This document shows, one piece after another, positions 1,850 through 39,953 of a stretch of DNA of 41,259 nt; position 1 is the stretch's first letter; every line of letters begins with the position of its first letter. The DNA is taken from NCBI GenBank assembly GCA_049304335.1, contig JBAQOA010000027.1, positions 1-41,259 on the forward strand, written 5' to 3'. The notes beneath the pieces are model-generated. The model was not told the origin of the DNA. It ran no database searches and worked only from the letters and a program-made list of their open reading frames with translations. Position numbers and translations under genes: made by a program. Origin of the DNA: Minisyncoccia bacterium (GTDB taxonomy: Bacteria; Patescibacteriota; Minisyncoccia; Phycocordibacterales; Zambryskibacteraceae).

Positions 1850-3025
1850 TTAGATTTTGCCCTTTTTGAGCACTTTCTTTATATATGCAGGAGCGTTTTC
1901 TATCGGCACAGATTCTTGGGCGCGTGTCTCGTTATCTCGTATCACCACTGATTTATCGAGCGCTTCTTTGTGCCCCATAATTATTAAAAATGGTGTTTTG
2001 TCCTCTGGACCCATTTGAGTAACTAACTTGTCGCGAGAAATATGGAACATCACAGGAATGCCTGCGAGTCTTAGATTCTCAACAAGCGGGAGAGATAAAA
2101 GTTTTGCTGTGTATCCCAATTGCACGAAATGAAATTTTGGGTCGCTCAATTTTTTACGGGTTGCTTTTGTGGTACCACCAGCAACCATCACAGATAAAAA
2201 CGGAGTTTCTCTTTTTGCCCCCATTTTTCTGGTGAGAGGTGATAGGCGCATACCACGCGCAAGGGTTTCTCCTGTTTCCTCATCTCTTATTTCAAACACA
2301 ATGTGATTTGCGCACGAACGTGGGGAAATCAAAGATGTGTCCAAAGCGTATGGGATGTTCATTATCTCTATATATTCAATGACCTCCTTGAGTAAATTTC
2401 TGCCATTTGGTGAAAGCGTGGCTATTGTCGTTGGGAACCTGTCTACGAATGGCGAATCTTTGTATTTTTTATCAGTTAGAAGTGCAAGAGGGTTGTCTTT
2501 AAATATCTTTTTAATTTCTGGTGGCATTAGAGGAGTGTTTTTTCTAGTGAATGATGCAAGTGCGCGGTCAAAATCATTCATTGATTCACGATCTCCGATT
2601 GAGCCGAGTGCGATTGTTAAATTTTTGTGTCCTGCTTCTTCAAGTAAAGAAACTGCAGTTCTAATAGCCAGAGCTTCTCCTGCAGAACCAGAAATCCCCA
2701 TAATGCGAAGAGAAACCATAGCCTTTTTTTTCTCGAACGATGAATGCGAGATGAGCAAAAGCGGGTGGGGAAGCACACTCCAGTTTTCATTTATATATTT
2801 TTTGACAAACGCCACATCCTCATCTACAAAAAGCATTGGTTCTTTCTCATCGCCCAAAAGTTCTTTTGCATATTCGCGGTCTTGGCGACTTGGCACGATG
2901 GACTCAATAGGAGTAAAACCAAAATATGCTGCTACTTCGTCGGCCTTCAGACTGAATGCTCGTATAGGAAATTTTATGTGTTTTGCTGGGTTCTCTGTGG
3001 GAGCAACTTCTTTCTTGTGGAACAT
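1850..3025 (-). CDS. HisRS/HisZ-like class II aminoacyl-tRNA-synthetase paralogue, apparently degenerate
   Basis: 391 aa. HisRS-like blocks are present (DNPLALLTDKK resembles NPLRILDSK; NIPYALDTSLISPRSCANHIVFEI resembles GI.Y..D..LVRGLDYY..TVFE). The C-terminal anticodon-binding-type domain is also present (PFLIIMGHKEALDKSVVIRDNETRAQ). The motif-2 RYERPQ-type residues are not recognisable. Confidence 0.55.
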   Translation of the reverse strand: MFHKKEVAPTENPAKHIKFPIRAFSLKADEVAAYFGFTPIESIVPSRQDREYAKELLGDEKEPMLFVDEDVAFVKKYINENWSVLPHPLLLISHSSFEKKKAMVSLRIMGISGSAGEALAIRTAVSLLEEAGHKNLTIALGSIGDRESMNDFDRALASFTRKNTPLMPPEIKKIFKDNPLALLTDKKYKDSPFVDRFPTTIATLSPNGRNLLKEVIEYIEIMNIPYALDTSLISPRSCANHIVFEIRDEETGETLARGMRLSPLTRKMGAKRETPFLSVMVAGGTTKATRKKLSDPKFHFVQLGYTAKLLSLPLVENLRLAGIPVMFHISRDKLVTQMGPEDKTPFLIIMGHKEALDKSVVIRDNETRAQESVPIENAPAYIKKVLKKGKI

Positions 3026-3030
3026 AGTAT

Positions 3031-3669
3031 TTATTTAGCGAATGCGCTGAGTGAGCCTGGCATTACACGGATTTTATCTACAGGGAAAAGTGCCAAGACT
3101 GGTTTCCCGACAATATTTTTGCGAGGTACAGGACCCCAAAGACGCGAGTCGGCCGAAGCTGCGCGGTTGTCTCCCATGGCAAAGTATTGTCCGTCTTTTA
3201 ATGTGTAAGTTAGTGTGTCTGTTTTGTTGAAAACCACAAATGGTTCATCAATCTTTATGCCTTCTGGATGTTCGGTGTTTATTATTGTTGTGCCACCTGC
3301 AGAAAGTTGCACTGTTTCTCCTGGAAGTCCGATAATTCTTTTAATAAAAAATTGTTTTGGGTCTAGTGGGTAATGAAAAATAATCACATCGCCTCTCTTT
3401 GGCTCCTCAAATCTGTATGAAATTTCATCAACAATTAGATATTCGCCGTTTTTAAATGTTGGGTCCATTGAAGAACCGTCAACTAGGTATGGCTGTGCGA
3501 TGAACATTCTAAAAGGAATAATCACAAAGACCACTATTGCTAAGAAGGAGAGGAGGTCTTTAATCCAAGGCTTTTCGTACCATTTTTGAAAGCCGTTTTG
3601 TGCTGATTGAGAGCTAGTTTTAAGAGTATTTTGGTCCATGTTCGCGCCATTGTACTGTGTCTCAAACAT
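3031..3669 (-). CDS. lepB: signal peptidase I
   Basis: N-terminal TM segment, then the boxes GSSMDPT (catalytic Ser), RGDVIIF, FIKRIIGLPGE (Lys) and GDNRAASADSR. An internal Met at 3639 is an alternative start. Confidence 0.9.
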   Translation of the reverse strand: MFETQYNGANMDQNTLKTSSQSAQNGFQKWYEKPWIKDLLSFLAIVVFVIIPFRMFIAQPYLVDGSSMDPTFKNGEYLIVDEISYRFEEPKRGDVIIFHYPLDPKQFFIKRIIGLPGETVQLSAGGTTIINTEHPEGIKIDEPFVVFNKTDTLTYTLKDGQYFAMGDNRAASADSRLWGPVPRKNIVGKPVLALFPVDKIRVMPGSLSAFAK

Positions 3670-3678
3670 AAAGTAAAC

Positions 3679-3838
3679 GCTCGCTTTTGTTTTCGGCGTT
3701 CACGCATAACTTTTCCAGCGAAAAAGTTTGCTGTCTCTCAGTTTGCCAAAGTAAAGAGTCCTTCGTGATTACACTCAGGACAGATTGACTTACCATGCTG
3801 GCAAACTTCCGAGACGAACGACGAAAACAAAAGCTCGC
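3679..3838. repeat. long-range imperfect inverted repeat in the divergent lepB/pth intergenic region
   Basis: The left arm GCTCGCTTTTGTTTTCGGCGTTC (3679-3701) pairs with GAACGACGAAAACAAAAGCTCGC (3816-3838) at about 20 of 23 positions. There are inner complementary segments (AAGTTTGC / GCAAACTT, GTCTC / GAGAC). Confidence 0.5.
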
Positions 3839-3945
3839 TCAAAATTCTAGAAACTTCCGATACAATAAATCCTCGCTCTAAAGTTTAAAATAGAATCATT
3901 TTAGAGTCTTCGCCGGCCAGCTGATTTATGTGATACGATTTTTGT

Positions 3946-4533
3946 ATGTGGTATGTAATTGGTTTAGGAAATCCTGGGGATGAATATGAAGGCACGCGTC
4001 ACAACATCGGCCGTGATGTTGTGAGCGCTCTCGCTAAAAAATTTGAACTAAATTTTAAAGAGGAAGGAAAAGCTAAGTCGCACTTTGCAAAGGGTTCAAT
4101 TGGGAAAAAGCCAAGCACGCTTCTTTTGCCAGATGTTTTTATGAATGAGTCAGGCAAAGTTGCAAAGTTTTATATAAAAAATAAGAAGGACGCTAAAAAC
4201 CTGATTGTTGTCAGAGATGATATTGATATGGGGCTTGGCACAATGAAGCTAACATTTAATCGTGGTTCAGGAGGGCACAGGGGCACAGAATCCGTCTTGG
4301 GTGCTATAAAAACAAGTGAGTTTTATCAACTAAAAATTGGAGTGTTACCACTAACTCCATCTGGAAAAATTAAAAAACCAAAAGGAGATAAAAAAGTGAT
4401 TGAATTTATTTTGGGTGAGTGGAAAAAAGATGAAGAAAAATTAATCAAGAAAGAAATTAAAAGAGCGGGTGAAGCAATTGAAGCGCTAATCAACGAAGGC
4501 TTTGGAAAGTCAGCAAGTAATTTTAATGGATAA
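3946..4533 (+). CDS. pth: peptidyl-tRNA hydrolase
   Basis: 195 aa. N-terminal signature VIGLGNPGDEYEGTRHNIGRDV with the catalytic His. Confidence 0.9.
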   Translation: MWYVIGLGNPGDEYEGTRHNIGRDVVSALAKKFELNFKEEGKAKSHFAKGSIGKKPSTLLLPDVFMNESGKVAKFYIKNKKDAKNLIVVRDDIDMGLGTMKLTFNRGSGGHRGTESVLGAIKTSEFYQLKIGVLPLTPSGKIKKPKGDKKVIEFILGEWKKDEEKLIKKEIKRAGEAIEALINEGFGKSASNFNG

Positions 4534-4563: not shown

Positions 4564-5037
4564 TTGTAGTGCTTCGGTGGCACACCGAGCGTCATAGAAT
4601 GCATTCCTGCTGATTTCTTCAATGCAGGCTATGCACTCAAAATGGCGACGCACCACGTCTGCAAAGATGGCGACATCTGAGGACGGGATGGTGAAGTGCC
4701 TGCCGATGAACGACTGTGGCAGACTGTCGAGAAAGAGCCTATTGAGCTCTTTGGGACGTGTCCAAATCGACACCATACTGTCTTTCGTCGTCATGTGCTT
4801 GATGAGGGAAAAGGCATCAGAGATAGCCTTAACCTTCTGACCGATGACAGGGAAGTCGTCAGGGTCAGCCCACGGCGAGATAAGCGCGTATCGGTGAAAG
4901 CTTTGGTGCAGTTGCCTCTCATCTACGATACCTCCCACCAACATCCTGAAATTTGGATGCCGATTGAGGTATGCAAGTCCTGCGATGTAGAAGAGCACGC
5001 TTTGCACACCTCTGTCCGTACTACCGCATCCAATCAT
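4552..5037 (-). CDS. hypothetical cytosolic protein encoded in a GC-rich islet
   Basis: 161-aa ORF. A GGAG Shine-Dalgarno lies 7 nt upstream of the ATG (CACTGGAGAACCTATG on the minus strand). The terminator hairpin sits at the 3' end. No signal peptide and no motif I recognise. Confidence 0.5.
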   Translation of the reverse strand: MIGCGSTDRGVQSVLFYIAGLAYLNRHPNFRMLVGGIVDERQLHQSFHRYALISPWADPDDFPVIGQKVKAISDAFSLIKHMTTKDSMVSIWTRPKELNRLFLDSLPQSFIGRHFTIPSSDVAIFADVVRRHFECIACIEEISRNAFYDARCATEALQASA

Positions 5038-5137
5038 AGGTTCTCCAGTGAGCTTCTGCAGAGAATCTACATTTTTTTAGAATTTAAGCAACTAAAAAAC
5101 TGCACCCATCTCGAGTACAGTTTTTTAGTTTAATTAC

Positions 5138-6214
5138 TTAAGCCTCAATAAAGCTAAGTGTCATCTTCTGTTCTTTTGGATCAAAAGTTGAAATCTTAAA
5201 GTTATAAACTTTTCCAAGTCCAAGCTTTTCTCGAAGTTTTTCTTCAGTTCCAAATTCAGAAACATGCACGAGACCCGCAACACCTTCCTCGATAGAAGCC
5301 AAGGCACCGTGCTTGTTAAATTTGATTACAACACCCTTTACAGAATCACCCTTTTTGTATTTCTTTTCAGCGTCAGACCAAGGGTTTGGTTTTAATGCTT
5401 TGATAGAAAGAGAAATCTTTCCGTCTTTTATTTCAATTACTTTTACCTTTACACGATCACCAACTTTGTAAACAGAGCGAGGATTCTCAACTAATGACCA
5501 ATCCATTTCTGAAATGTGTACTAATCCTTCTAATCCTTCCTGAAGTTTTACAAAGATTCCGAAATCTACTGCGCCAGTAACTTCACCTAGTACTTCATCG
5601 CCGACAGAATATTTCTCTACCATGTCGCTCTTTGTTTTCTCGTTTTCGCCCTTTTCAGAGAAAATGAGTTTCCCTTCCTTAGGCATTGCTGCAATCATTG
5701 TGACTATAAAGTGTTCACCAACGAATTTTCTAAGTTCATCCAAGATTTTATCTTTATCACCATCTGCTACACGTGGGTAATGGTCCTGCTTTAGTTGTGA
5801 TGCAGGTAGAAAGCCTTGTATTCCTTGCCATTGCAAGATGAGACCGCCTTTGTTTGCGTCAACAACGGCCAAATCAAATTGCTTCTTTTCTTTAATAGCT
5901 TCATCTGCTTCTGCCCAGATTTGAGCCTGTCTTGCTTCCTTAAGAGAAATTTCAATGTAACCTTCAGGGTTATCAAAGCCCACAACTTTTCCTGCAATTG
6001 TGTCGCCAACATTTAGATTCTTAATAATGTCGCGTGCTTGCAAAAATTCTCTTCCGAAAATTATTCCAGTACCAAAAGGGGATAGGTCAATATAAACCGC
6101 CGCCTTTTCGATGCCGATTACTTTTCCTTCAATTATGTCTTCAGCAATTGGAGGAACAGGAGAATCAGCAACAATTTTATGCATTGCTGAATCTGCTTTT
6201 AATTCCTTATTCAT
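5138..6214 (-). CDS. rpsA: 30S ribosomal protein S1 (four S1/OB repeats)
   Basis: 358 aa with four repeats of the S1 motif pattern (G..V.G.V......G.FV.L..G..GLVHISE). Confidence 0.85.
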   Translation of the reverse strand: MNKELKADSAMHKIVADSPVPPIAEDIIEGKVIGIEKAAVYIDLSPFGTGIIFGREFLQARDIIKNLNVGDTIAGKVVGFDNPEGYIEISLKEARQAQIWAEADEAIKEKKQFDLAVVDANKGGLILQWQGIQGFLPASQLKQDHYPRVADGDKDKILDELRKFVGEHFIVTMIAAMPKEGKLIFSEKGENEKTKSDMVEKYSVGDEVLGEVTGAVDFGIFVKLQEGLEGLVHISEMDWSLVENPRSVYKVGDRVKVKVIEIKDGKISLSIKALKPNPWSDAEKKYKKGDSVKGVVIKFNKHGALASIEEGVAGLVHVSEFGTEEKLREKLGLGKVYNFKISTFDPKEQKMTLSFIEA

Positions 6215-6450: not shown

Positions 6451-6726
6451 TTAGTGCGGGTTCTTTCGCCTAAACTCCCGCTGGAACTCCACGCGTCTAA
6501 CCGTGGCGACGGAGTCCACATACTTCTTGAACTTCTTGCAGGTGGAATCCGGGACCGCCTCGCCGCGTTCCCACAGCGTGGGGATTGCAGTGAGGCCGAC
6601 TGATGTCGGCTCGACATCGCAGGGCGCCATTGTGCCAGCGGAGTGCTTGTTCTGCACTTCGTCGTACTTGAGCGCGCCAAATGTTATGGCGATGAGGAGA
6701 AACAGTATCAGCGTAACTACGCGCAC
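6451..6726 (-). CDS. small secreted or membrane-anchored protein (GC-rich islet)
   Basis: 91 aa. GTG start with AGGAG 8 nt upstream. N-terminal hydrophobic segment VVTLILFLLIAITFGAL. Two Cys residues. A terminator follows directly. Confidence 0.55.
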   Translation of the reverse strand: MRVVTLILFLLIAITFGALKYDEVQNKHSAGTMAPCDVEPTSVGLTAIPTLWERGEAVPDSTCKKFKKYVDSVATVRRVEFQREFRRKNPH

Positions 6727-6820
6727 GAAAAACTCCTATGTGAAGAGGGAAGGTACAGCAGACAATATTATAACAAATATTCTCGGGAATAGCAAATACG
6801 GAATTTTTATATAAAAGAAG

Positions 6821-6940: not shown

Positions 6941-7504
6941 CTAGAGTCGAGAGTAGAACCTCGGCGCGACCGGCGAAATTCCCGCAGCGTTGTCCGTCAT
7001 CGAGAAGACGTCGGAACATCGCAGGTAGAACGCGTTCTCCGTAGGTGTCGCGTTCCGATTCGCAGGGCTGGCCGCCACCTCACGGGGCGGCCGGTCGAGC
7101 GGCATGATGTTGCTGTAGCTTTTCCCCGAAAGGGGCCCCCAGGTCGATGCCGTGGCGTACGTGGTCGACGAGCAGCAAAGGTTGGTCTGCTGCTTGGCGG
7201 GCGGGCCGGTGTCGTAGAACGGCGTGGAGCCGTTCTCGGCGACAGGGGCTTCGACCGTCACGTCCAGCGTGCCGAGCGTGTTCTCAGCCTGGGCGGGCTT
7301 CTTGGCTGCCCAGCTGACGTCAACCGTCGTGGCGCTCGTGAGCGCGAAGCTCACATCGTACGGCGCAGCGAGGGGCGACTTCTGGCTGACCTGCTTGACC
7401 TTCGCTTCGGCCGCGTTGGCCGTGGGCGGTGCCATGGCGCCGGTCATCGCGATGGCGAAAATCGCCACCATGATGGGGTGCATGGTCTTGCGGGGCATCA
7501 TCAT
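6941..7504 (-). CDS. secreted protein (GC-rich islet)
   Basis: 187 aa. GAGAGG Shine-Dalgarno 6 nt upstream. Sec-type signal peptide MHPIMVAIFAIAMTGAMAPPTANA|AE. A beta-rich mature part follows (SFALTSATTVDVSWAA). It was chosen over the overlapping GC-rich frames because of the signal peptide, SD and terminator. Confidence 0.6.
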   Translation of the reverse strand: MMMPRKTMHPIMVAIFAIAMTGAMAPPTANAAEAKVKQVSQKSPLAAPYDVSFALTSATTVDVSWAAKKPAQAENTLGTLDVTVEAPVAENGSTPFYDTGPPAKQQTNLCCSSTTYATASTWGPLSGKSYSNIMPLDRPPREVAASPANRNATPTENAFYLRCSDVFSMTDNAAGISPVAPRFYSRL

Positions 7505-15630: not shown

Positions 15631-16305
15631 TTACTTCTTGTTGCAATCCGCGCCGTATACGCGGGGCGTCTGAGCCACGATCACGCGCCCATCCTGTGGG
15701 AGCGTGAATCTGAGACTGTCGACAGCGCCGATGTCCGTCGCGTCGCCTCGGGTCAGGACCTTGTACTTCTCGCCGCGGCCCGTTTCCACGGTTGCCGTGT
15801 CGAGCTGCTTCGTCAGGTACGAGACCTTGAAGGAGCACTTGTCCGGATTGAGCCGGAACCAAACGCTCGGCTCTCCTGACTCGAGGTCAGCAGAGCTTAC
15901 CTGCGGCTCCGGAGGACTGTCCTTGGTGGAGGGCGCCAGCGTGGCGCTCTTCTTCGTCGTGTCGGCGCTCATTTGCGATGAGCAGCCGCCGCTCGTCTTG
16001 CAGTTGGGCAGGCCGTACTTCTTGATGCTGTAGCCCACCGCGAACACGAAGAGCATGATGGCAATGACCGCGAGAAGCGTCCGTGCCAACTGCCCGCCGT
16101 GCTGGCTGAACCAGTTGCCGATGCGCTGTCCGACGGACTGCGTGTTCGGCTGGCTGGGCGCCATGGGCGTCCAGAGGAGCGAGAAGAGGAACGACCCGAG
16201 GTCCCATGCGAGCATGAAGGTGAAGAACCACCAGCAGCCGGTTACCGGCCACAGGAGTCCCGTTCCGGCGGTAAGAACCGCGAGGATCAACCAGTAGATA
16301 AGCAT
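15631..16305 (-). CDS. integral membrane protein with a C-terminal soluble domain (GC-rich islet)
   Basis: The ATG at 16305 has GGAG 9 nt upstream. 224 aa with three predicted TM helices, then a Ser/Pro/Thr-rich linker and a beta-rich domain. The 5' extension in the track (to 16404) has no SD. Confidence 0.6.
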   Translation of the reverse strand: MLIYWLILAVLTAGTGLLWPVTGCWWFFTFMLAWDLGSFLFSLLWTPMAPSQPNTQSVGQRIGNWFSQHGGQLARTLLAVIAIMLFVFAVGYSIKKYGLPNCKTSGGCSSQMSADTTKKSATLAPSTKDSPPEPQVSSADLESGEPSVWFRLNPDKCSFKVSYLTKQLDTATVETGRGEKYKVLTRGDATDIGAVDSLRFTLPQDGRVIVAQTPRVYGADCNKK

Positions 16306-16527
16306 TGAGCTTTCTCCGAGGGGTTTTGAAGCGTGATGAAACGATGTGATGTACTTATATCTGGGTACTGATAGAAGTATAGCATACTGGCCACCCATTG
16401 TCAAGCACTAAAATCCAACCCATATGCGTAGGTTTTACTTAGTAATTTTGTATTAATTACAATACATTTTCGTCGTTCGGATTAAATACAAAAGTAAACT
16501 TTTGTGCCGAATCCTCACTTCTCACTG

Positions 16528-34100: not shown

Positions 34101-34601
34101 ATGACCTCTCATCTCGAAGTAGAACGAAAGTTCGTCGTTGAGAACTTTCACGCTGGCATGATTCCCGCGGACGCAGAAATGTCTGAAATCACTCAGGTAT
34201 ATCTGGTGAGTGATAACAGGGCAGTGGAGAAAAGGGTTCGCGCGGAGCTTGGTGCTCGGGTACGGCGCTATACCCATACCACCAAAGAGGATTCAGGGGT
34301 GGCAGGCATTCGGCGCGAGAGCGAAAAGGAAATCACATTGCCTGATTTTCAGACCTTCCTTTCTTTGCGTGATGTTCACACTCGCGCAATCGTAAAGCGT
34401 CGGTACAAGTTTCGCTCCGGCAAGCACGTTCTCGAGCTCGACGTCTACGAGTTGCCAATTTCGAATCTGGTTGTACTGGAAGTCGAGGTTGGGGCGCTCA
34501 ATGAGCAGGTCGAGTTTCCCGAAGGTTGGGTACTTCGTGAAGTCACCGGTGACTCCATGTATTCGAACCGTTCAATTGCCCTCGGCTCGGTGGGGCCGTA
34601 G
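34101..34601 (+). CDS. CYTH-domain protein (triphosphate tunnel metalloenzyme; GC-rich islet)
   Basis: 166 aa. The N-terminal ExExK signature is LEVERKFVV, and the alternating charged beta-strand pattern continues through the protein. Confidence 0.75.
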   Translation: MTSHLEVERKFVVENFHAGMIPADAEMSEITQVYLVSDNRAVEKRVRAELGARVRRYTHTTKEDSGVAGIRRESEKEITLPDFQTFLSLRDVHTRAIVKRRYKFRSGKHVLELDVYELPISNLVVLEVEVGALNEQVEFPEGWVLREVTGDSMYSNRSIALGSVGP

Positions 34602-35976: not shown

Positions 35977-36795
35977 ATGAAAAAAGATAAGTTTTCTATT
36001 CTTAAATCTAAGAAGATTGAAGCCCGTAAGCGCCAATATCGTTTGCGCATCGGTTTAGTAGCAATAACTATTTTAGTTGTGGCACTTGTTTTGCCACCTC
36101 TTGTTGCTCGGATACCATTACTAGAAATAAGGACTGTAAATGTAGAAGGCACCAAGACCATTGAATCAAGCGCAATTGTAGATTTTGTTAATGCAAAACT
36201 TTCAGAGACATATTTAAAAGTTTTTCCGAGAGACACATATATAACGGCCGGTAAGGGGAGACTAAAGGAAGGACTGTTAAATGAATACCCAGCGATTTTA
36301 GACATTAAGTTAAGTTTTCATACTCCTCATATATTGCTCATAGAAATAACAGAAAGAGAGCCTTCAGTTTTATGGTGTGCAGGTAGTGATAATAAAAATT
36401 GTTATTTTGCCGACTCGCAGGGATTCATTTATGAGAGAGCGCCAGAATTTTCGTCTCCCGTTTATGTAGTTTTTAGGAATGGTATTAAAAATGAAAATCC
36501 TATGAAGCAGAGTATTTCTGGTAAAACTGTTTTTGAGCGCATAAATGTATTAGAAAAGAATTTTTCAGTATTAGGATTGAAAGTAAAAGAAATTTCTTTC
36601 CAGCCAAATGAAGTTGTTAATTTTTATTTGAATCACGGCGCGCTTTATATTTCATTGAGAGGGGATGATAAGCTCACTTTTGATAATTTGAGTTCGCTTT
36701 TATTAAATCCAAAAACAGATTTGCGTGACGGAGTAGGCGGAATAAAAAATTCATATATTGATTTAAGGTTCGGAAATAAGATTTTTTACAAATAA
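35977..36795 (+). CDS. ftsQ: FtsQ/DivIB-like cell division protein (POTRA)
   Basis: 272 aa. Basic N-terminus, one TM segment, then the POTRA-like segment IRTVNVEGTKTIESSAIVDFV. Confidence 0.6.
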   Translation: MKKDKFSILKSKKIEARKRQYRLRIGLVAITILVVALVLPPLVARIPLLEIRTVNVEGTKTIESSAIVDFVNAKLSETYLKVFPRDTYITAGKGRLKEGLLNEYPAILDIKLSFHTPHILLIEITEREPSVLWCAGSDNKNCYFADSQGFIYERAPEFSSPVYVVFRNGIKNENPMKQSISGKTVFERINVLEKNFSVLGLKVKEISFQPNEVVNFYLNHGALYISLRGDDKLTFDNLSSLLLNPKTDLRDGVGGIKNSYIDLRFGNKIFYK

Positions 36796-36837
36796 TTAAT
36801 TATTGACAAAATATAATTACAAAGTAAAGTAAATATA

Positions 36838-37141
36838 GAACAGCACAAAAGACCGACTGGGTAGACTCCGCGGAATTCCATCCGCTCGAGGGGACTCAGT
36901 ACAGAATGAATCTAGGTTGGCAGTGGGCCACAGAGAGCGCTAGCCCGGCTAAACATCAAACGCCGCGCAAACCCTCCACCATTTCCGGGGACAGTCCTTG
37001 GACCCCCGTCAGAGATGCAGAACGCCCAACTATCTCAACCAATTTTCGTGGGAAGTAGATTTTTACTTCCTTTGTGGAGCGTCAAAACTCCCGGTCGAAC
37101 CATCGCGCTCACCCTGATTAAAGGGTGAGCGTTTTGTTTTT
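36838..37141 (+). ncRNA. unassigned structured RNA candidate, unit 1 of the ORF-free GC-rich locus
   Basis: A possible promoter lies upstream: TTGACA at 36803-36808, 16 nt, then TAAAGT. The GC-rich body contains hairpins such as GGAAGTA-GATTTT-TACTTCC. It ends in the terminator CGCTCACCCT-GATTAA-AGGGTGAGCG-TTTTGTTTTT (37106-37141). Confidence 0.4.
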
Positions 37142-37184
37142 CATAAATTTTGTAAATTTGACAATTTTATATATTTTGTGTTTG

Positions 37185-37863
37185 AACTTTTTAGGAGCTT
37201 GACTGTGGATAACTGTTTCTGTAATGTCTCTGCCAGACCGTTCTTAGACAAGTTGATTGGTTCATCTGGCAAAGAACAAACGGCAGATAAACCGCGGGGC
37301 AACCCACGGAAAATCCACCGCAAGTTCGTAGAGCCCGCAAGAGCTCTGCATCTGGTCGCCGTTCACGGCTACACCCAACTGTTACGACTAGCATACGGGT
37401 TAGCTAGTCGAGACATAACAGGCCGCAGTCCTCACGAGGGATTATCGGCAAGGGAAAATCCAAGTTTCGCTATCATGCGTCGGCAAGATAGTTTCGTACG
37501 GACTTCAAAGTCCATACGAACATCCCGCCTATCCACATAGGCGACGATGAAAACAAGGTACCAGAAAAGCAAGAACCAATGAAGACGGCCAGACCTCCAA
37601 AGTCCAGCCGATCCAAGGAAGTAAGCGAGGATGAAATCTCGCTGAAAACCTCGGAGTTGCGGATCGTCAATCCGCTCCTTCACGCACGAAGTTTCCGAAA
37701 GGAAACCCGTTGAACCTCGCTTCGGCAAGGTCCATCGCCTCTCCAGAGAGGTAAGTGCACAGCTTGTCACCCTTCTAGGGCGTATAGGTTCTGATGACCG
37801 AAAGGCCATAAGAATCCTCGCGCCCCCAAACGGGCGTCCTTCTACACGAAGGGCGCCCGTTTT
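37185..37863 (+). ncRNA. unassigned large structured RNA candidate, unit 2
   Basis: About 680 nt without a credible ORF. Tetraloop-capped hairpins include CCGCGGG-GCAA-CCCACGG (37292-37309) and GTTTCC-GAAA-GGAAAC (37691-37706). There are also an 8-bp stem at 37385-37410 and a 12-bp stem at 37493-37520. It ends in the terminator at 37828-37863. The 5' end is uncertain. Confidence 0.35.
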
Positions 37864-37904
37864 CACGTATTAGGTTGAAGTATTTTGTTTTATAAGTACT
37901 ATCC

Positions 37905-38135
37905 ACTGCAGAAAGGATGCACATTCACAGGTATGCAGCGGTCCCTCCCCGTGGCTACGTCCGTAAGGGCGGAAGCTATTTCAGTGATTCTTGGGCGAGA
38001 TTGGACTCTCCAATGACTGTGTTCGTGACAAGTGCTTAGTCGTGTTTGCACTTGTTCTAGTCGCGCTTGCATGCCACGACTGGACATCCGAAGTTTTGGG
38101 CGCGCATCCGTACAGGGTGCGCGCCCAATTTTTTT
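37905..38135 (+). ncRNA. unassigned structured RNA candidate, unit 3
   Basis: A possible promoter lies upstream: TTGAAG at 37875-80, 16 nt, then TACTAT. The body has nested stems such as AGTCGTG...CACGACT. It ends in a strong terminator, TTGGGCGCGCA-(11 nt)-TGCGCGCCCAA-TTTTTTT (38096-38135). Confidence 0.35.
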
Positions 38136-38153
38136 GATATAGTCTTAAACTTA

Positions 38154-39122
38154 ATGAAAGAAAATTTTTGGGATAAATTAAAAAAGCCCATCTTTGTTTT
38201 AGCGCCAATGGCCGACGTCACTGACGTTTCTTTTCGCAGGGTAATTGCAAAATATGGCAAACCAGATGTTATGTGGACCGAGTTTGTGTCTGCAGATGGT
38301 TTGGTGCGAGCTACTCCAGAAGGAAAGAAAAAACTTTTAAAAGATTTGGAATATTCAGAAGGTGAGAGACCAATTGTGGCGCAATTATTTTCTGCCAATC
38401 CAGAATATATGTTTGAGGCTGCAAAGTTGGTCAAAGAATTAGGATTTGATGGCTTGGATATCAATATGGGATGTCCAGACAAAGGTGTAGAAAAGCAGGG
38501 AGCAGGAGCTGCACTAATGAAAAATTCAAAATTAGCACGAGAAATAATTCGTTCTGCAAAAAATGGTTTTGATGGACCAGTTTCAGTGAAGACCCGTATT
38601 GGCTATAACAAAGATGAGCTGGATGTATGGCTCCCAGAGATTTTGAAAGAAGGTGTTTCGTTGGTCACAATACATGCACGCACAAGAAAAGAAATGTCCG
38701 ATGTCCCAGCTAATTGGGAAAGAGTAAAAAGAGCAGTTGAAATTAGAAATGAATATGCGCCAGAGACTTTAATTTTCGGAAATGGAGATGTTGCCGGTGT
38801 TGATGATGCTAGGAAAAAATGCGAGGAATTTGGTTGTGATGGCGTAATGCTCGGGCGCGCAATTTTTGGCAACCCTTGGCTTTTTATGAAAAATCCACCA
38901 ACTGATGGACCAACAACTGAAGAAAAACTTAAAGTACTCGTTGAACACAGCAAACTTTATGATGAACTGATTACAGGATTTAAAAGTTTTTCGGTAATGA
39001 AAAAACATTTTAAAGCGTACGTAAATGGTTTTGATGGTGCTGTAGATTTAAGAAAAAAATTAATGGAAACAAATAATTCGAGCGAAGTTGAAATGATGGT
39101 AAATGATTTTCTAAAAAAATAG
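38154..39122 (+). CDS. tRNA-dihydrouridine synthase
   Basis: The ATG at 38154 lies after the terminator. VLAPMADVTDVSFRRV, QLFSANPE, INMGCP and IHARTR are Dus family landmarks. Confidence 0.88.
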   Translation: MKENFWDKLKKPIFVLAPMADVTDVSFRRVIAKYGKPDVMWTEFVSADGLVRATPEGKKKLLKDLEYSEGERPIVAQLFSANPEYMFEAAKLVKELGFDGLDINMGCPDKGVEKQGAGAALMKNSKLAREIIRSAKNGFDGPVSVKTRIGYNKDELDVWLPEILKEGVSLVTIHARTRKEMSDVPANWERVKRAVEIRNEYAPETLIFGNGDVAGVDDARKKCEEFGCDGVMLGRAIFGNPWLFMKNPPTDGPTTEEKLKVLVEHSKLYDELITGFKSFSVMKKHFKAYVNGFDGAVDLRKKLMETNNSSEVEMMVNDFLKK

Positions 39123-39221: not shown

Positions 39222-39896
39222 ATGCGCACCACAATGTTGGTTCTCGTGACGGCACTCCTTCTGGGGTGCAGGAAAGACGAGACGCTCGTGAGTCTGTATG
39301 ACTCTGGGCTTCCCACGTCGCCACAGGCGCCCGTTGGTGTCATGCAGGTCTTCATGAATCCGCACGCGGATTCGCTGAAGCTCGGCGACACCACCACTTT
39401 CGTTGCCCGTGCAATCCCTACTCGGGAAAGCGCAGGTTTCAATCGAAAGATCTTCTGGAGGTCGGCCGACACGACCATTGTGTCGCTGACTCAGGTGAGC
39501 GACACAAGCGTCCGCGCTACCGGCAAGAAGGTAGGCAGTGCCCAGATTCGTGGGTACGCCTCTGCCGATTCCAGCAAGTTTGCCACGGCGTCTCTCACGG
39601 TCTATACCGTGGCGCCGTCGCACAGCTCGCCGGTACAGCTGGTGAAGTTCGATGGCGATTCGGTCATCGCCGTCAAGGTGAATGAGAGTAGGCAGATGCC
39701 AGCTCCGCGCTGTGTGATGGTGAACCCAAGCGCGCCATGCGAGCTACTCTGGCGCTCGACCGACACCCTGACGCTTTCGGTGAATGCTACCGGAAGAATC
39801 ACGGGCAAGAAGGTAGGAAATGCGCAGGTGTATGTGCGGGTCAAGGCCGACACTACGTTCGTCGCGGTCTACCCGAAGCCTGTGCAGGTGAAGTAG
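39222..39896 (+). CDS. lipoprotein with two Big_2-like Ig domains (GC-rich islet)
   Basis: AGGAGG lies before the ATG. The lipobox is LLLGC. There are two repeats of the pattern W-R-S-x-D-T...V...ATG-K-K-VG-x-AQ. Confidence 0.7.
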   Translation: MRTTMLVLVTALLLGCRKDETLVSLYDSGLPTSPQAPVGVMQVFMNPHADSLKLGDTTTFVARAIPTRESAGFNRKIFWRSADTTIVSLTQVSDTSVRATGKKVGSAQIRGYASADSSKFATASLTVYTVAPSHSSPVQLVKFDGDSVIAVKVNESRQMPAPRCVMVNPSAPCELLWRSTDTLTLSVNATGRITGKKVGNAQVYVRVKADTTFVAVYPKPVQVK

Positions 39897-39923: not shown

Positions 39924-39953
39924 GGGGCGCACGACAATTTCGTCGTGCGCCCC
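39924..39953 (+). terminator. intrinsic terminator of the lipoprotein gene
   Basis: GGGGCGCACGAC-AATTTC-GTCGTGCGCCCC followed by ATTTCGTT. Confidence 0.7.

Follow-up and report, generated by a model that had tools for sequence, protein, structure and literature searches.

We analyzed a 41,259-nucleotide (nt) stretch of a Minisyncoccia bacterium genome (contig JBAQOA010000027.1 of assembly GCA_049304335.1; this whole stretch is hereafter the window), focusing on the 1358 nt that separate the ftsQ stop codon from the dus ATG (36796-38153, plus strand). On the left lies ftsQ (35977-36795, +), a 272-amino-acid (aa) open reading frame (ORF) whose homologs carry Pfam POTRA_1, one of them being named FtsQ by the Joint Genome Institute (JGI), and on the right lies dus (38154-39122, +), a tRNA-dihydrouridine synthase gene with Pfam PF01207 in all homologs. 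The closest relatives of the window Dus and FtsQ proteins are from Zambryskibacteria-like and Paceibacterota metagenome-assembled genomes. The interval divides into three units (about 305, 635, and 228 nt long) that each run from a sigma-70-like promoter to a plus-strand intrinsic terminator, and we consider it probable from comparison of related loci that these are three independent structured non-coding RNA (ncRNA) genes of undescribed families, transcribed from the plus strand by sigma-70 and intrinsically terminated.

A first-pass annotation of this DNA had divided the region at three plus-strand intrinsic terminators, each with promoter-like AT-rich DNA after it, into segments of about 300, 680, and 230 nt. 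The partition stood, with the lengths corrected to those given above. We confirmed the terminators at 37105-37132, 37828-37862, and 38096-38128, each with a T-run, and AT-rich DNA with a sigma-70-like promoter does precede each unit. The unit 1 promoter came from a promoter scan, and those of units 2 and 3 were read from the sequence and from conserved promoters of homologous loci. Predicted folding was stronger than that of dinucleotide shuffles for all three units (z = -3.5 for unit 1, -10.5 for unit 2, and -4.7 for unit 3). The direct and inverted repeats of the interval are internal to the units or belong to terminators, and a repeat scan of the interval found none that bracket the locus like the ends of a mobile element.

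Related ftsQ-dus loci, designated by L-numbers, were drawn from GTDB genomes (L001, L008, L009), from metagenomes via FtsQ alignment (L081-L083), and from contigs that carry the genes of the nearest FtsQ and Dus relatives (L134-L148). The contigs with homologs derive from Ga0172379, Ga0334722, Ga0494143, SRR13723392, SRR22746125, SRR6868922, SRR22870119, and SRR30923182, and one carrier genome is GCA_964582295.1, with the 209-kb contig CAZOQP010000002.1. Only 10-20 nt separate the end of ftsQ from dus in the majority of 80 species-level relatives; a GC-rich, ORF-poor gap of 0.7-1.1 kb occurs solely in genomes whose FtsQ is closest to that of the window (43-67% identity). Unit 2 has 13 distinct homologs, all at the ftsQ-dus junction, ranging in length from about 390 to 640 nt and sharing a pairwise identity of only about 40%. 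Closer subgroups are formed by L009/L137/L141, L134/L136 (59%), and L081/L143, the last pair appearing nearly identical over comparable stretches. Unit 3 is represented by three sequences including the window, the others being L136 (where a contig end cuts it) and L139, always immediately 5' of dus. Unit 1 is likewise represented by three sequences, in the window, in L081, and, as an 82-nt 3' end, in L143, and several close relatives lack units 1 and 3 at this locus. BLASTN and nhmmer searches with the three units against 80 dus loci found nothing outside the closest clade, and nhmmer profiles of the three units found no further homologs in the fetched loci. Viral contigs were scanned twice for exact patterns taken from the unit 3 core, which gave chance matches, and the unit 3 nhmmer profile aligned to five viral contigs over short stretches only, apparently the pattern sites (E 0.01-0.05). 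By sequence comparison, the three units form narrow families confined to one clade and to a fixed place in the genome of Zambryskibacteria-like Paceibacteria, which belong to the Candidate Phyla Radiation (CPR).

The interval has a G+C content of 0.49-0.53, higher than that of the flanking genes (about 0.31-0.42), in a window that is AT-rich overall (about 39% G+C), and the GC skew is slightly negative within the interval, unlike in the flanking genes. As the first-pass annotation had stated, there is no protein-like ORF: the ORFs of the interval are short (at most 144 aa), overlap, and lie on both strands, and among the ten window ORFs scanned against Pfam those of the interval had no match of any weight. 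Coding conservation was sought by comparing six-frame translations of 11 unit 2 homologs all against all, and no coding signal appeared: closely related pairs show the same similarity in all six frames, with frame switches as the alignment proceeds, and distant homologs show no six-frame similarity. The sole ATG-initiated ORF of unit 1 (50 aa) is shortened to 3 codons in L081. We rejected a protein-coding gene, intact or decayed, since there is neither a Pfam match nor frame-specific conservation.

Architecture of unit 2

The unit 2 promoter (37199-37227, +) has a -35 element TTGACT (37199-37204) and a -10 element TAATGT (37222-37227) separated by a 17-nt spacer, and would place the transcription start at the CA of CCAGACC, about 37234. 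A regular expression scan found TTGAC-N17-TAnnnT upstream of the unit 2 RNA in 10 of 11 loci; the promoters of L139, L143, and L146 were read by eye. Between the window and L081 the promoter is 86% identical over 77 nt, with diverged RNA bodies.

The predicted RNA (37234-37868, +; about 635 nt) is laid out as a 5' leader, the 5' strand of a helix P1, a central array of about 14 hairpins with GCAA, GAAA, and UUCG loops, the 3' strand P1', a linker, a hairpin HC, and the terminator. P1 of the window pairs GACAAGUUG (37247-37255, +) with CAGCUUGUC (37760-37768, +), which ends 9 nt ahead of HC. An equivalent helix of other sequence occupies the same place in L081, L134, L136, L139, L142, L146, and L008, so that across lineages nucleotides ~10-34 of the RNA are joined to a segment ending 3-11 nt before HC. 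The strands are GAGAAUGU and ACAUUCUC in L081, GAGAGAUUG and CAAUUUCUC in L134, GAGAAGAUUG and CAAUCCUCUC in L136, UUGGUAAGUUGU and GCAACUUACCAA in L142, GGUGAGCUA and UAGCUUACC in L146, and GAGUUGCA and UGCAGCUC in L008. P1 was found by an ungapped-helix search (an RNA duplex search with free internal loops was uninformative) and has a combined p of about 4e-7 over lineages that are not fully independent. Because P1 closes the central many-hairpin domain, the predicted fold is not a set of beads on a string.

Within the central array, a stem that the first-pass annotation had called perfect (37493-37520) has one mismatch, and the GCAA-capped hairpin it had noted at 37292-37309 is present, also with one mismatch. 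The array contains an internal duplication of ~90 nt (37495-37650, +; 37495-37555 versus 37590-37650), recorded as the direct repeats D2, D5, and D11 with spacings of 84-95 nt. The duplicated strings include CTTCAAAGTCCATACGA / CTCCAAAGTCCAGCCGA and TAGGCGACGATGAAA / TAAGCGAGGATGAAA, and in L134 a hairpin with a CCAUCAAAAG loop occurs twice, one compensatory pair distinguishing the copies. Duplication and loss of hairpin modules would explain the length range of 390-640 nt.

At about 40% identity the 13 unit 2 sequences cannot be aligned reliably over their full length, and we therefore analyzed the close subgroups and the 3' module. Over the last ~100 nt, nine homologs have the same architecture in nine independent minimum-energy folds: an unpaired CCCUUC-type linker; HC, composed of stem S1, an internal loop, and stems S2 and S3; and the terminator. 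HC of the window (37778-37825, +) has S1 at 37778-37783 / 37820-37825, S2 at 37787-37792 / 37811-37816, and S3 formed by AUGACC (37794-37799) and GGCCAU (37804-37809) with a conserved A.C mismatch and a GAAA loop (37800-37803). The S3 sequence (GAUGAC/GCCAUC) is almost invariant, and its A.C mismatch becomes A-U in L009. The terminator (37828-37866, +) is formed by AAACGGGCGTCCTTC / GAAGGGCGCCCGTTT followed by TTTTCAC, and 10 of its 13 pairs covary among 9 homologs. A K-turn or C/D-box reading of UGAUGAC was rejected by eye, the opposite strand having no GA dinucleotide, as was a terminator/antiterminator reading of the repeated GGGCG/CGCCC of the window, which by eye is not conserved in homologs.

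Model R1, a covariance model of the 3' module built from nine seeds including the window, scores its seeds at 57-91 bits (80 bits for the window, itself a seed). Among non-seed homologs it recovers L081 and L143 (E = 0.002-0.005) and, more weakly, L139 and L008 (E = 0.16), all at the syntenic site, and it found nothing convincing in about 85 other Paceibacteria loci. In the nine sequences, 19 of 27 pairs of the 3' module changed on both sides, compared with 9.9±1.9 in shuffles (0/500) and 5-9 with slid partners, a count that uses an alignment fitted to the model (A9) and leans towards structure. The trio L009/L137/L141 has 202 consensus pairs with 96.6% of cells paired, and 30 of these pairs are double-changed (11.6±2.6 in shuffles, 0/500; 0-6 with slid partners); between L134 and L136, 22 of 102 pairs are compensatory. 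Alignment of homologs thus agrees with the structured RNA that the first-pass annotation had suspected, as base-pair-preserving double changes exceeded the shuffle and slid-partner controls in every test with power.

Two further elements were seen around the unit 2 promoter. A DnaA box in its spacer (TTATCCACA, 37204-37212, -) is the sole perfect one in the 41-kb window and is identical in L081, L143, and L139, with one mismatch in L134, despite the divergence of the RNA bodies. DnaA-dependent control of this promoter is possible; an origin of replication (oriC) was rejected, as the 41 kb contain a single perfect box and boxes are not clustered. About 40 nt 5' of the -35 element, L081, L139, L134, L136, L141, L001, and L008 carry a palindrome-like TTGGACA-N5-TGTCAAA, which may be the operator of a dimeric regulator. 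Its counterpart at 37155-37180 of the window is degenerate, the right half being lost.

Units 1 and 3 and the surrounding GC-rich sequence

The unit 1 promoter (36803-36830, +) comprises TTGACA (36803-36808), a 16-nt spacer, and TAAAGT (36825-36830), with 10/12 matches in the promoter scan, and its layout is repeated in L081 (TTGACA..TAGAGT). Transcription probably starts near 36837, which would give an RNA of about 305 nt (36837-37141, +). A closing helix pairs GACCG (36851-36855) with CGGUC (37092-37096) around branched hairpins, including GGAG-CGUCAAAA-CUCC at 37076-37091. Unit 1 aligns to L081 3917-4262, where all 58 consensus pairs are kept, 16 of them by changes on both sides (8.2±2.1 in shuffles; 0-2 with slid partners), and the closing helix is among the pairs that change. 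The terminator (37105-37141, +; GCGCTCACCCT / AGGGTGAGCG, then TTTTGTTTTT) is kept in L081 with one compensatory pair, and acts, by prediction, on the plus strand only because an upstream A-tract is absent.

Unit 3 has its promoter at 37875-37902 (+), with TTGAAG (37875-37880), a 16-nt spacer, and TACTAT (37897-37902); promoter-like elements are found in the same place in L136 (TTGAAA-N17-TACTGT) and L139 (TATAAT). The predicted start near 37909 would give an RNA of about 228 nt (37909-38135, +), whose core (37925-38080) is strongly conserved among the window, L136, and L139, better than unit 2. The core features are a 5' GGUAUGCAGC at 37930-37939, a GUAA-capped hairpin CGUCC/GGGCG, and a hairpin (38059-38065 / 38075-38081) with the invariant 9-nt loop CUUGCAUGC (38066-38074), within which lies the palindrome GCAUGC. 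Three of the seven pairs of this last hairpin (38059-38081) changed on both sides, in a comparison of three sequences that has low power. The loop CUUGCAUGC is complementary to the invariant 5' segment GGUAUGC(N)AGC (37930-37939), and the GCAUGC loop could be part of an alternative P1 helix, a conformational switch, or a kissing-loop dimer site. The terminator (38096-38135, +; TTGGGCGCGCATCC / GGGTGCGCGCCCAA, then T7) is predicted to be plus-strand only because of the T7 run on its 3' side and the lack of an A-tract on its 5' side.

The flanks of dus are a hotspot of varied inserts in related genomes. L024 has a 208-aa ORF on the minus strand (4876-6000), L144 has two AT-rich ORFs and a different GC-rich, terminator-bounded unit of ~250 nt (2370-4000), and other GC-rich, RNA-like stretches occur at L004 513-870, L136 1909-2195, and L081 5740-6015 (downstream of dus). 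The inserts in L024, L144, L004, L136, and L081 have no match to units 1-3 or to model R1.

The first-pass annotation had taken high G+C in an AT-rich genome as a mark of structured RNA, which did not hold: the other GC-rich islands of the window, at 6460-6735 (-), 6941-7504 (-), 15631-16310 (-), and 39222-39896 (+), read as protein genes. The three minus-strand islands have G+C of 0.60-0.67 and each has a near-consensus promoter (for example, TTGACA-17-TATAAT at 7612-7584), with a terminator listed in the scan for two of the three. The ORF at 6941-7504 looks like a secreted protein and that at 15631-16310 like a membrane protein, neither with a Pfam match, and these islands look like acquired or fast-evolving orphan genes. 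Directly after dus, 39222-39896 encodes a 224-aa lipoprotein-like protein with a Big_2 domain (0.60 G+C; terminator 39924-39953). Big_2 genes stand at the same place in L141, L144, and L146, so this gene has been kept in the clade despite its foreign-looking composition. Between dprA and serS, a 166-aa ORF of 0.52 G+C (34101-34601, +) has a weak CYTH match (19.8 bits versus the Pfam cut-off of 23.2); the equivalent place in L139 holds an AAA_28 gene, making this another variable slot of the neighborhood. GC-rich islands in such genomes comprise putative RNA genes as well as small secreted or membrane protein genes, and G+C alone does not identify an RNA.

Known RNA families and alternative explanations

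We ran cmscan with Rfam 15 (4227 families, both strands) on the whole window, on 36700-38250 at E<=10, and on ten related loci at E<=0.1-1. The whole-window scan returned tRNAs only, the interval scan returned chance hairpin matches to microRNA and small RNA models at 12-19 bits, far under the gathering scores, and the ten related loci gave chance hairpins only. The interval scan at E<=10 gave no match to known riboswitch models, to RNase P RNA (likewise without a match at gathering score or in the ten related loci), to signal recognition particle (SRP) RNA, to 6S RNA, or to OLE, ROOL, GOLLD, HEARO, and raiA. Models of group I and II introns and of small self-cleaving ribozymes had no match in the window or the related loci. 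ARAGORN found 8 tRNAs in the window, the nearest about 2.9 kb from the units, and neither ARAGORN nor the Rfam model found a transfer-messenger RNA (tmRNA) there. Phage records showed no similarity to the units, and literature searches for structured RNAs of CPR, Parcubacteria, or Zambryskibacteria yielded nothing relevant.

The first-pass annotation had raised two possibilities, divergent CPR versions of housekeeping RNAs and a large ncRNA of an undescribed class, while finding no RNase P, tmRNA, or SRP signature by eye. The model searches and our inspection of motifs agree on the missing signatures. RNase P RNA is marked by the universally conserved P4 helix, formed by strands resembling GAGGAAAGUCC (CR-I) and ACAGAAnnnGGCUUA (CR-IV/V), tmRNA by a reading frame for the tag peptide and a domain resembling tRNA (acceptor arm, T arm, and terminal CCA), SRP RNA by a GNAR-capped helix 8 in which the symmetric and asymmetric loops, of the GGAAGCAG type, are conserved, and 6S RNA by a single rod of about 180 nt that opens into a large bubble at its center. 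The units contain no P4/CR-I/CR-IV strings (the sole look-alike, AAAGUCC at about 37600, lies in mid unit 2 within the internal duplication), no tRNA-like end, and no SRP symmetric loop, and units 1 and 3 take a branched shape, not that of a rod, in their predicted as well as their consensus folds. That one of these RNAs has gone unrecognized by standard models draws some support from the unit sizes, which overlap those of such RNAs, from the poor representation of CPR in family seeds, from the far better conservation of the unit 3 core than of unit 2, and from the GNAA-capped hairpin of unit 3 followed by GGAAGC, a faint echo of SRP helix 8. That hairpin (CGUCC-GNAA-GGGYG), however, is a 5-bp stem with a 1x2 internal loop in place of the SRP symmetric loop, and its 3' flank varies between homologs (GGAAGC, GGAACA, GAAAGC). 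Together with the empty Rfam and ARAGORN searches, the absence of units 1 and 3 from this site in most close relatives, and the 390-640 nt length range of unit 2, this makes a divergent RNase P RNA, tmRNA, SRP RNA, or 6S RNA highly unlikely. A cis-acting leader of dus, mainly unit 3 or, where unit 3 is missing, the 3' module of unit 2, with the terminator as a riboswitch- or attenuator-like expression platform, is unlikely as well. In its favor, the distance from the last terminator to the dus ATG is 20-45 nt in every case, unit 3 is aptamer-like in its invariant core and variable peripheral hairpins, its GCAUGC segment has two mutually exclusive pairings, and in most species a CCC-UUCN-GGG mini-hairpin of unit 2 competes with HC S1, becoming CUC/GAG where S1 changes (L142). 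Yet no riboswitch model matches, and an extended -10 element stands between terminator and gene (TGATATAGT at 38135-38143, within 38135-38156, +; ATG at 38154). The element TTTTGATATAGT or a close variant occurs 6-17 nt 5' of the dus ATG in the window, L081, L134, L008, L141, and L143, and is kept whether unit 3 or unit 2 stands upstream; the dus start has no Shine-Dalgarno sequence. Because this conserved element, the putative dus promoter, adjoins the ATG, dus probably has its own promoter and a (near-)leaderless mRNA, in which case the RNA units would be separate genes and not leaders. The terminators are also very strong, no conserved antiterminator was found, dus relatives without any such RNA are the rule, and in the window a further promoter follows both unit 1 and unit 2.

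A different question is which strand carries the RNA. For unit 2 the predicted folding energy is -292 kcal/mol on the minus strand and -260 on the plus strand, at an equal z-score (-10.0 versus -10.5). In units 1 and 2 the minus strand also has a slight advantage in consensus fold energy, and the A.C mismatch of HC would become a G.U pair on that strand. The plus strand of unit 2 is A/C-rich and U-poor (A 0.29, C 0.28, G 0.24, and U 0.19 in the window, with homologs alike), so its complement gains G.U pairs and folds as well or better, and folding energy therefore cannot assign the strand. Functional minus-strand transcripts of units 1 and/or 2 are nevertheless very improbable in view of the conserved -35/-10 pairs and the T-tracts, which lie 3' of the hairpins on the plus strand only in units 1, 3, and most unit 2 homologs; read on the minus strand, most homologs have only 1-3 T after the hairpins, and L139 and L146 have up to 5. 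The promoter scan listed no minus-strand promoter-like site between 36829 and 40279, and G.U pairs outnumbered A.C oppositions in plus-strand helices by 23:4, 54:9, and 11:0, a count biased by the prediction of these structures on the plus strand. Unit 3 clearly prefers the plus strand (consensus fold -44.9 versus -27.7 kcal/mol). Promoters, T-tracts, and the G.U excess thus point to the plus strand for units 1 and 2. Finally, hairpins and G+C left over from a GC-rich donor would suit a junction as variable as this one, with its ORF insert in L024, its two AT-rich ORFs in L144, and its GC-rich inserts in L004 and L136, and a genome with several acquired-looking GC-rich islands. We regard decayed or foreign DNA, a pseudogene, or a mobile-element remnant as extremely improbable all the same: unit 2, with promoter, P1, HC, and terminator, has persisted while ftsQ diverged to 43-67% identity, compensatory changes exceed controls, frame-specific conservation and matches to Pfam or phage are absent, and no repeats flank the locus as mobile-element ends.

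Three independent structured ncRNA genes remain the reading we favor, so that of the two possibilities raised by the first-pass annotation the large ncRNA of an undescribed class is preferred, given the lack of Rfam matches, the syntenic homologs, the compensatory changes, and the absence of frame-specific conservation, and the divergent housekeeping RNAs are not, with no motif or model match and with presence and length that vary. The units have what is generally expected of ncRNA genes: their own promoter, their own Rho-independent terminator, no ORF, and compensatory changes. Several points weigh against this reading. Transcription and the RNA ends are deduced from sequence signals, and RNA stability, action in trans, and a partner are proposals. 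The minus strands of units 1 and 2 fold equally or slightly better, so that their strand is assigned by promoters and T-tracts. Few sequences could be compared, just 2-3 for each of units 1 and 3, and some structures were predicted from the same alignments, or the alignment was fitted to the model (A9), which biases the counts towards structure. The central unit 2 domain of the window has no close relative, its hairpins being backed by thermodynamics and analogy only, and the role as a trans-acting ribonucleoprotein (RNP) or scaffold described below is our best guess.

In the model that we propose, unit 2 would begin with a short 5' leader, after which P1 would close a domain of short GC-rich hairpins, many of them capped by GNRA or UNCG loops, that evolve through duplication and loss. 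At its 3' end, HC would serve as a 'handle', with covarying outer and middle stems and the near-invariant GAUGAC/GCCAUC with its A.C mismatch, followed by the terminator hairpin. Selection acts on pairing and on a few sequence motifs, namely a 5' strand of the AAGUUG type, the core of HC, and the core of unit 3, including the loop with GCAUGC. The invariant elements (HC core, P1 5' strand, and unit 3 core) may be contact sites for a protein or another RNA, and the variable hairpin array of unit 2 may supply bulk, stability, or multivalency. The RNAs would then act in trans as an RNP or scaffold, possibly of a sequestering or self-associating kind, rather than as regulators of dus. We propose more tentatively, as a possibility somewhat short of probable, that unit 2 founds a class of large (0.4-0.65 kb) ornate RNAs confined to one lineage of ultra-small CPR bacteria, in which the P1-closed hairpin array and the conserved 3' handle form an RNP or a self-assembling RNA particle, and that units 1 and 3 represent further classes, unit 3 with a candidate palindromic kissing loop, making the locus an 'RNA gene island' in a genome with almost no other non-coding DNA.

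Comparison with known systems

The genomes of CPR bacteria (Patescibacteria) are tiny and densely packed with genes, and hardly any of their RNA biology is known to have been studied by experiment. That 1.3 kb of structured non-coding DNA is kept in such a genome suggests a function worth its cost. The units resemble housekeeping RNAs in size, in their raised G+C in an AT-rich genome, and in having their own promoter and terminator, and differ from them in that the tested defining features are absent and that presence and length vary among close relatives.

Sponge RNAs such as CsrB/RsmZ and CrcZ offer a second likeness, being independently transcribed and intrinsically terminated, with duplicating hairpin modules in variable number. 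Recurrent C/A-rich CNUCAAAA-type loops occur in several unit 2 homologs and in unit 1. Unlike in sponges, no periodicity of GGA or CA motifs was found in the units, and unit 2 has a predicted global fold closed by P1 and a single conserved 3' handle. Hairpin loops of the type YAAAA number 74 and 68 on the two strands of this AT-rich genome, so that their enrichment is not demonstrable.

New classes of bacterial RNA seldom exceed ~400 nt (those that do are OLE, ROOL, GOLLD, HEARO, and a few others), and each of these long classes has proved biochemically unusual. Unit 2 is nearest in kind to OLE, ROOL, and GOLLD, judged by its general form, as the tests by family model and by defining motif all fail. 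Like OLE RNA (about 610 nt, Firmicutes), it is a large, many-hairpin orphan ncRNA of a restricted group. It differs in phylum, and the Rfam OLE model has no match in the window. OLE shares an operon with oapA, the gene of its partner, whereas unit 2 has its own predicted promoter and terminator, no partner gene found adjoining, and much lower sequence conservation, with lengths of 390-640 nt. With ROOL (about 580 nt) and GOLLD (about 800 nt) it shares the character of a large 'ornate' RNA rich in hairpins and tetraloops. ROOL and GOLLD often adjoin a tRNA or a prophage, unlike the units, which have neither beside them and match no phage record or covariance model. ROOL and GOLLD form RNA-only homo-oligomers, and three large RNA classes among OLE, ROOL, GOLLD, HEARO, and others form RNA-only assemblies (PMC12286853). 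Self-association would be in keeping with the palindromic GCAUGC loop in unit 3 and with the many hairpins of unit 2, but for these units it is pure speculation. By comparative sequence evidence, the three units are probable RNAs, previously undescribed and of narrow distribution, one of them large. If true, a large CPR-specific RNA with a closing helix and a conserved 3' handle would be a target for metatranscriptomics, structure determination, and partner identification.

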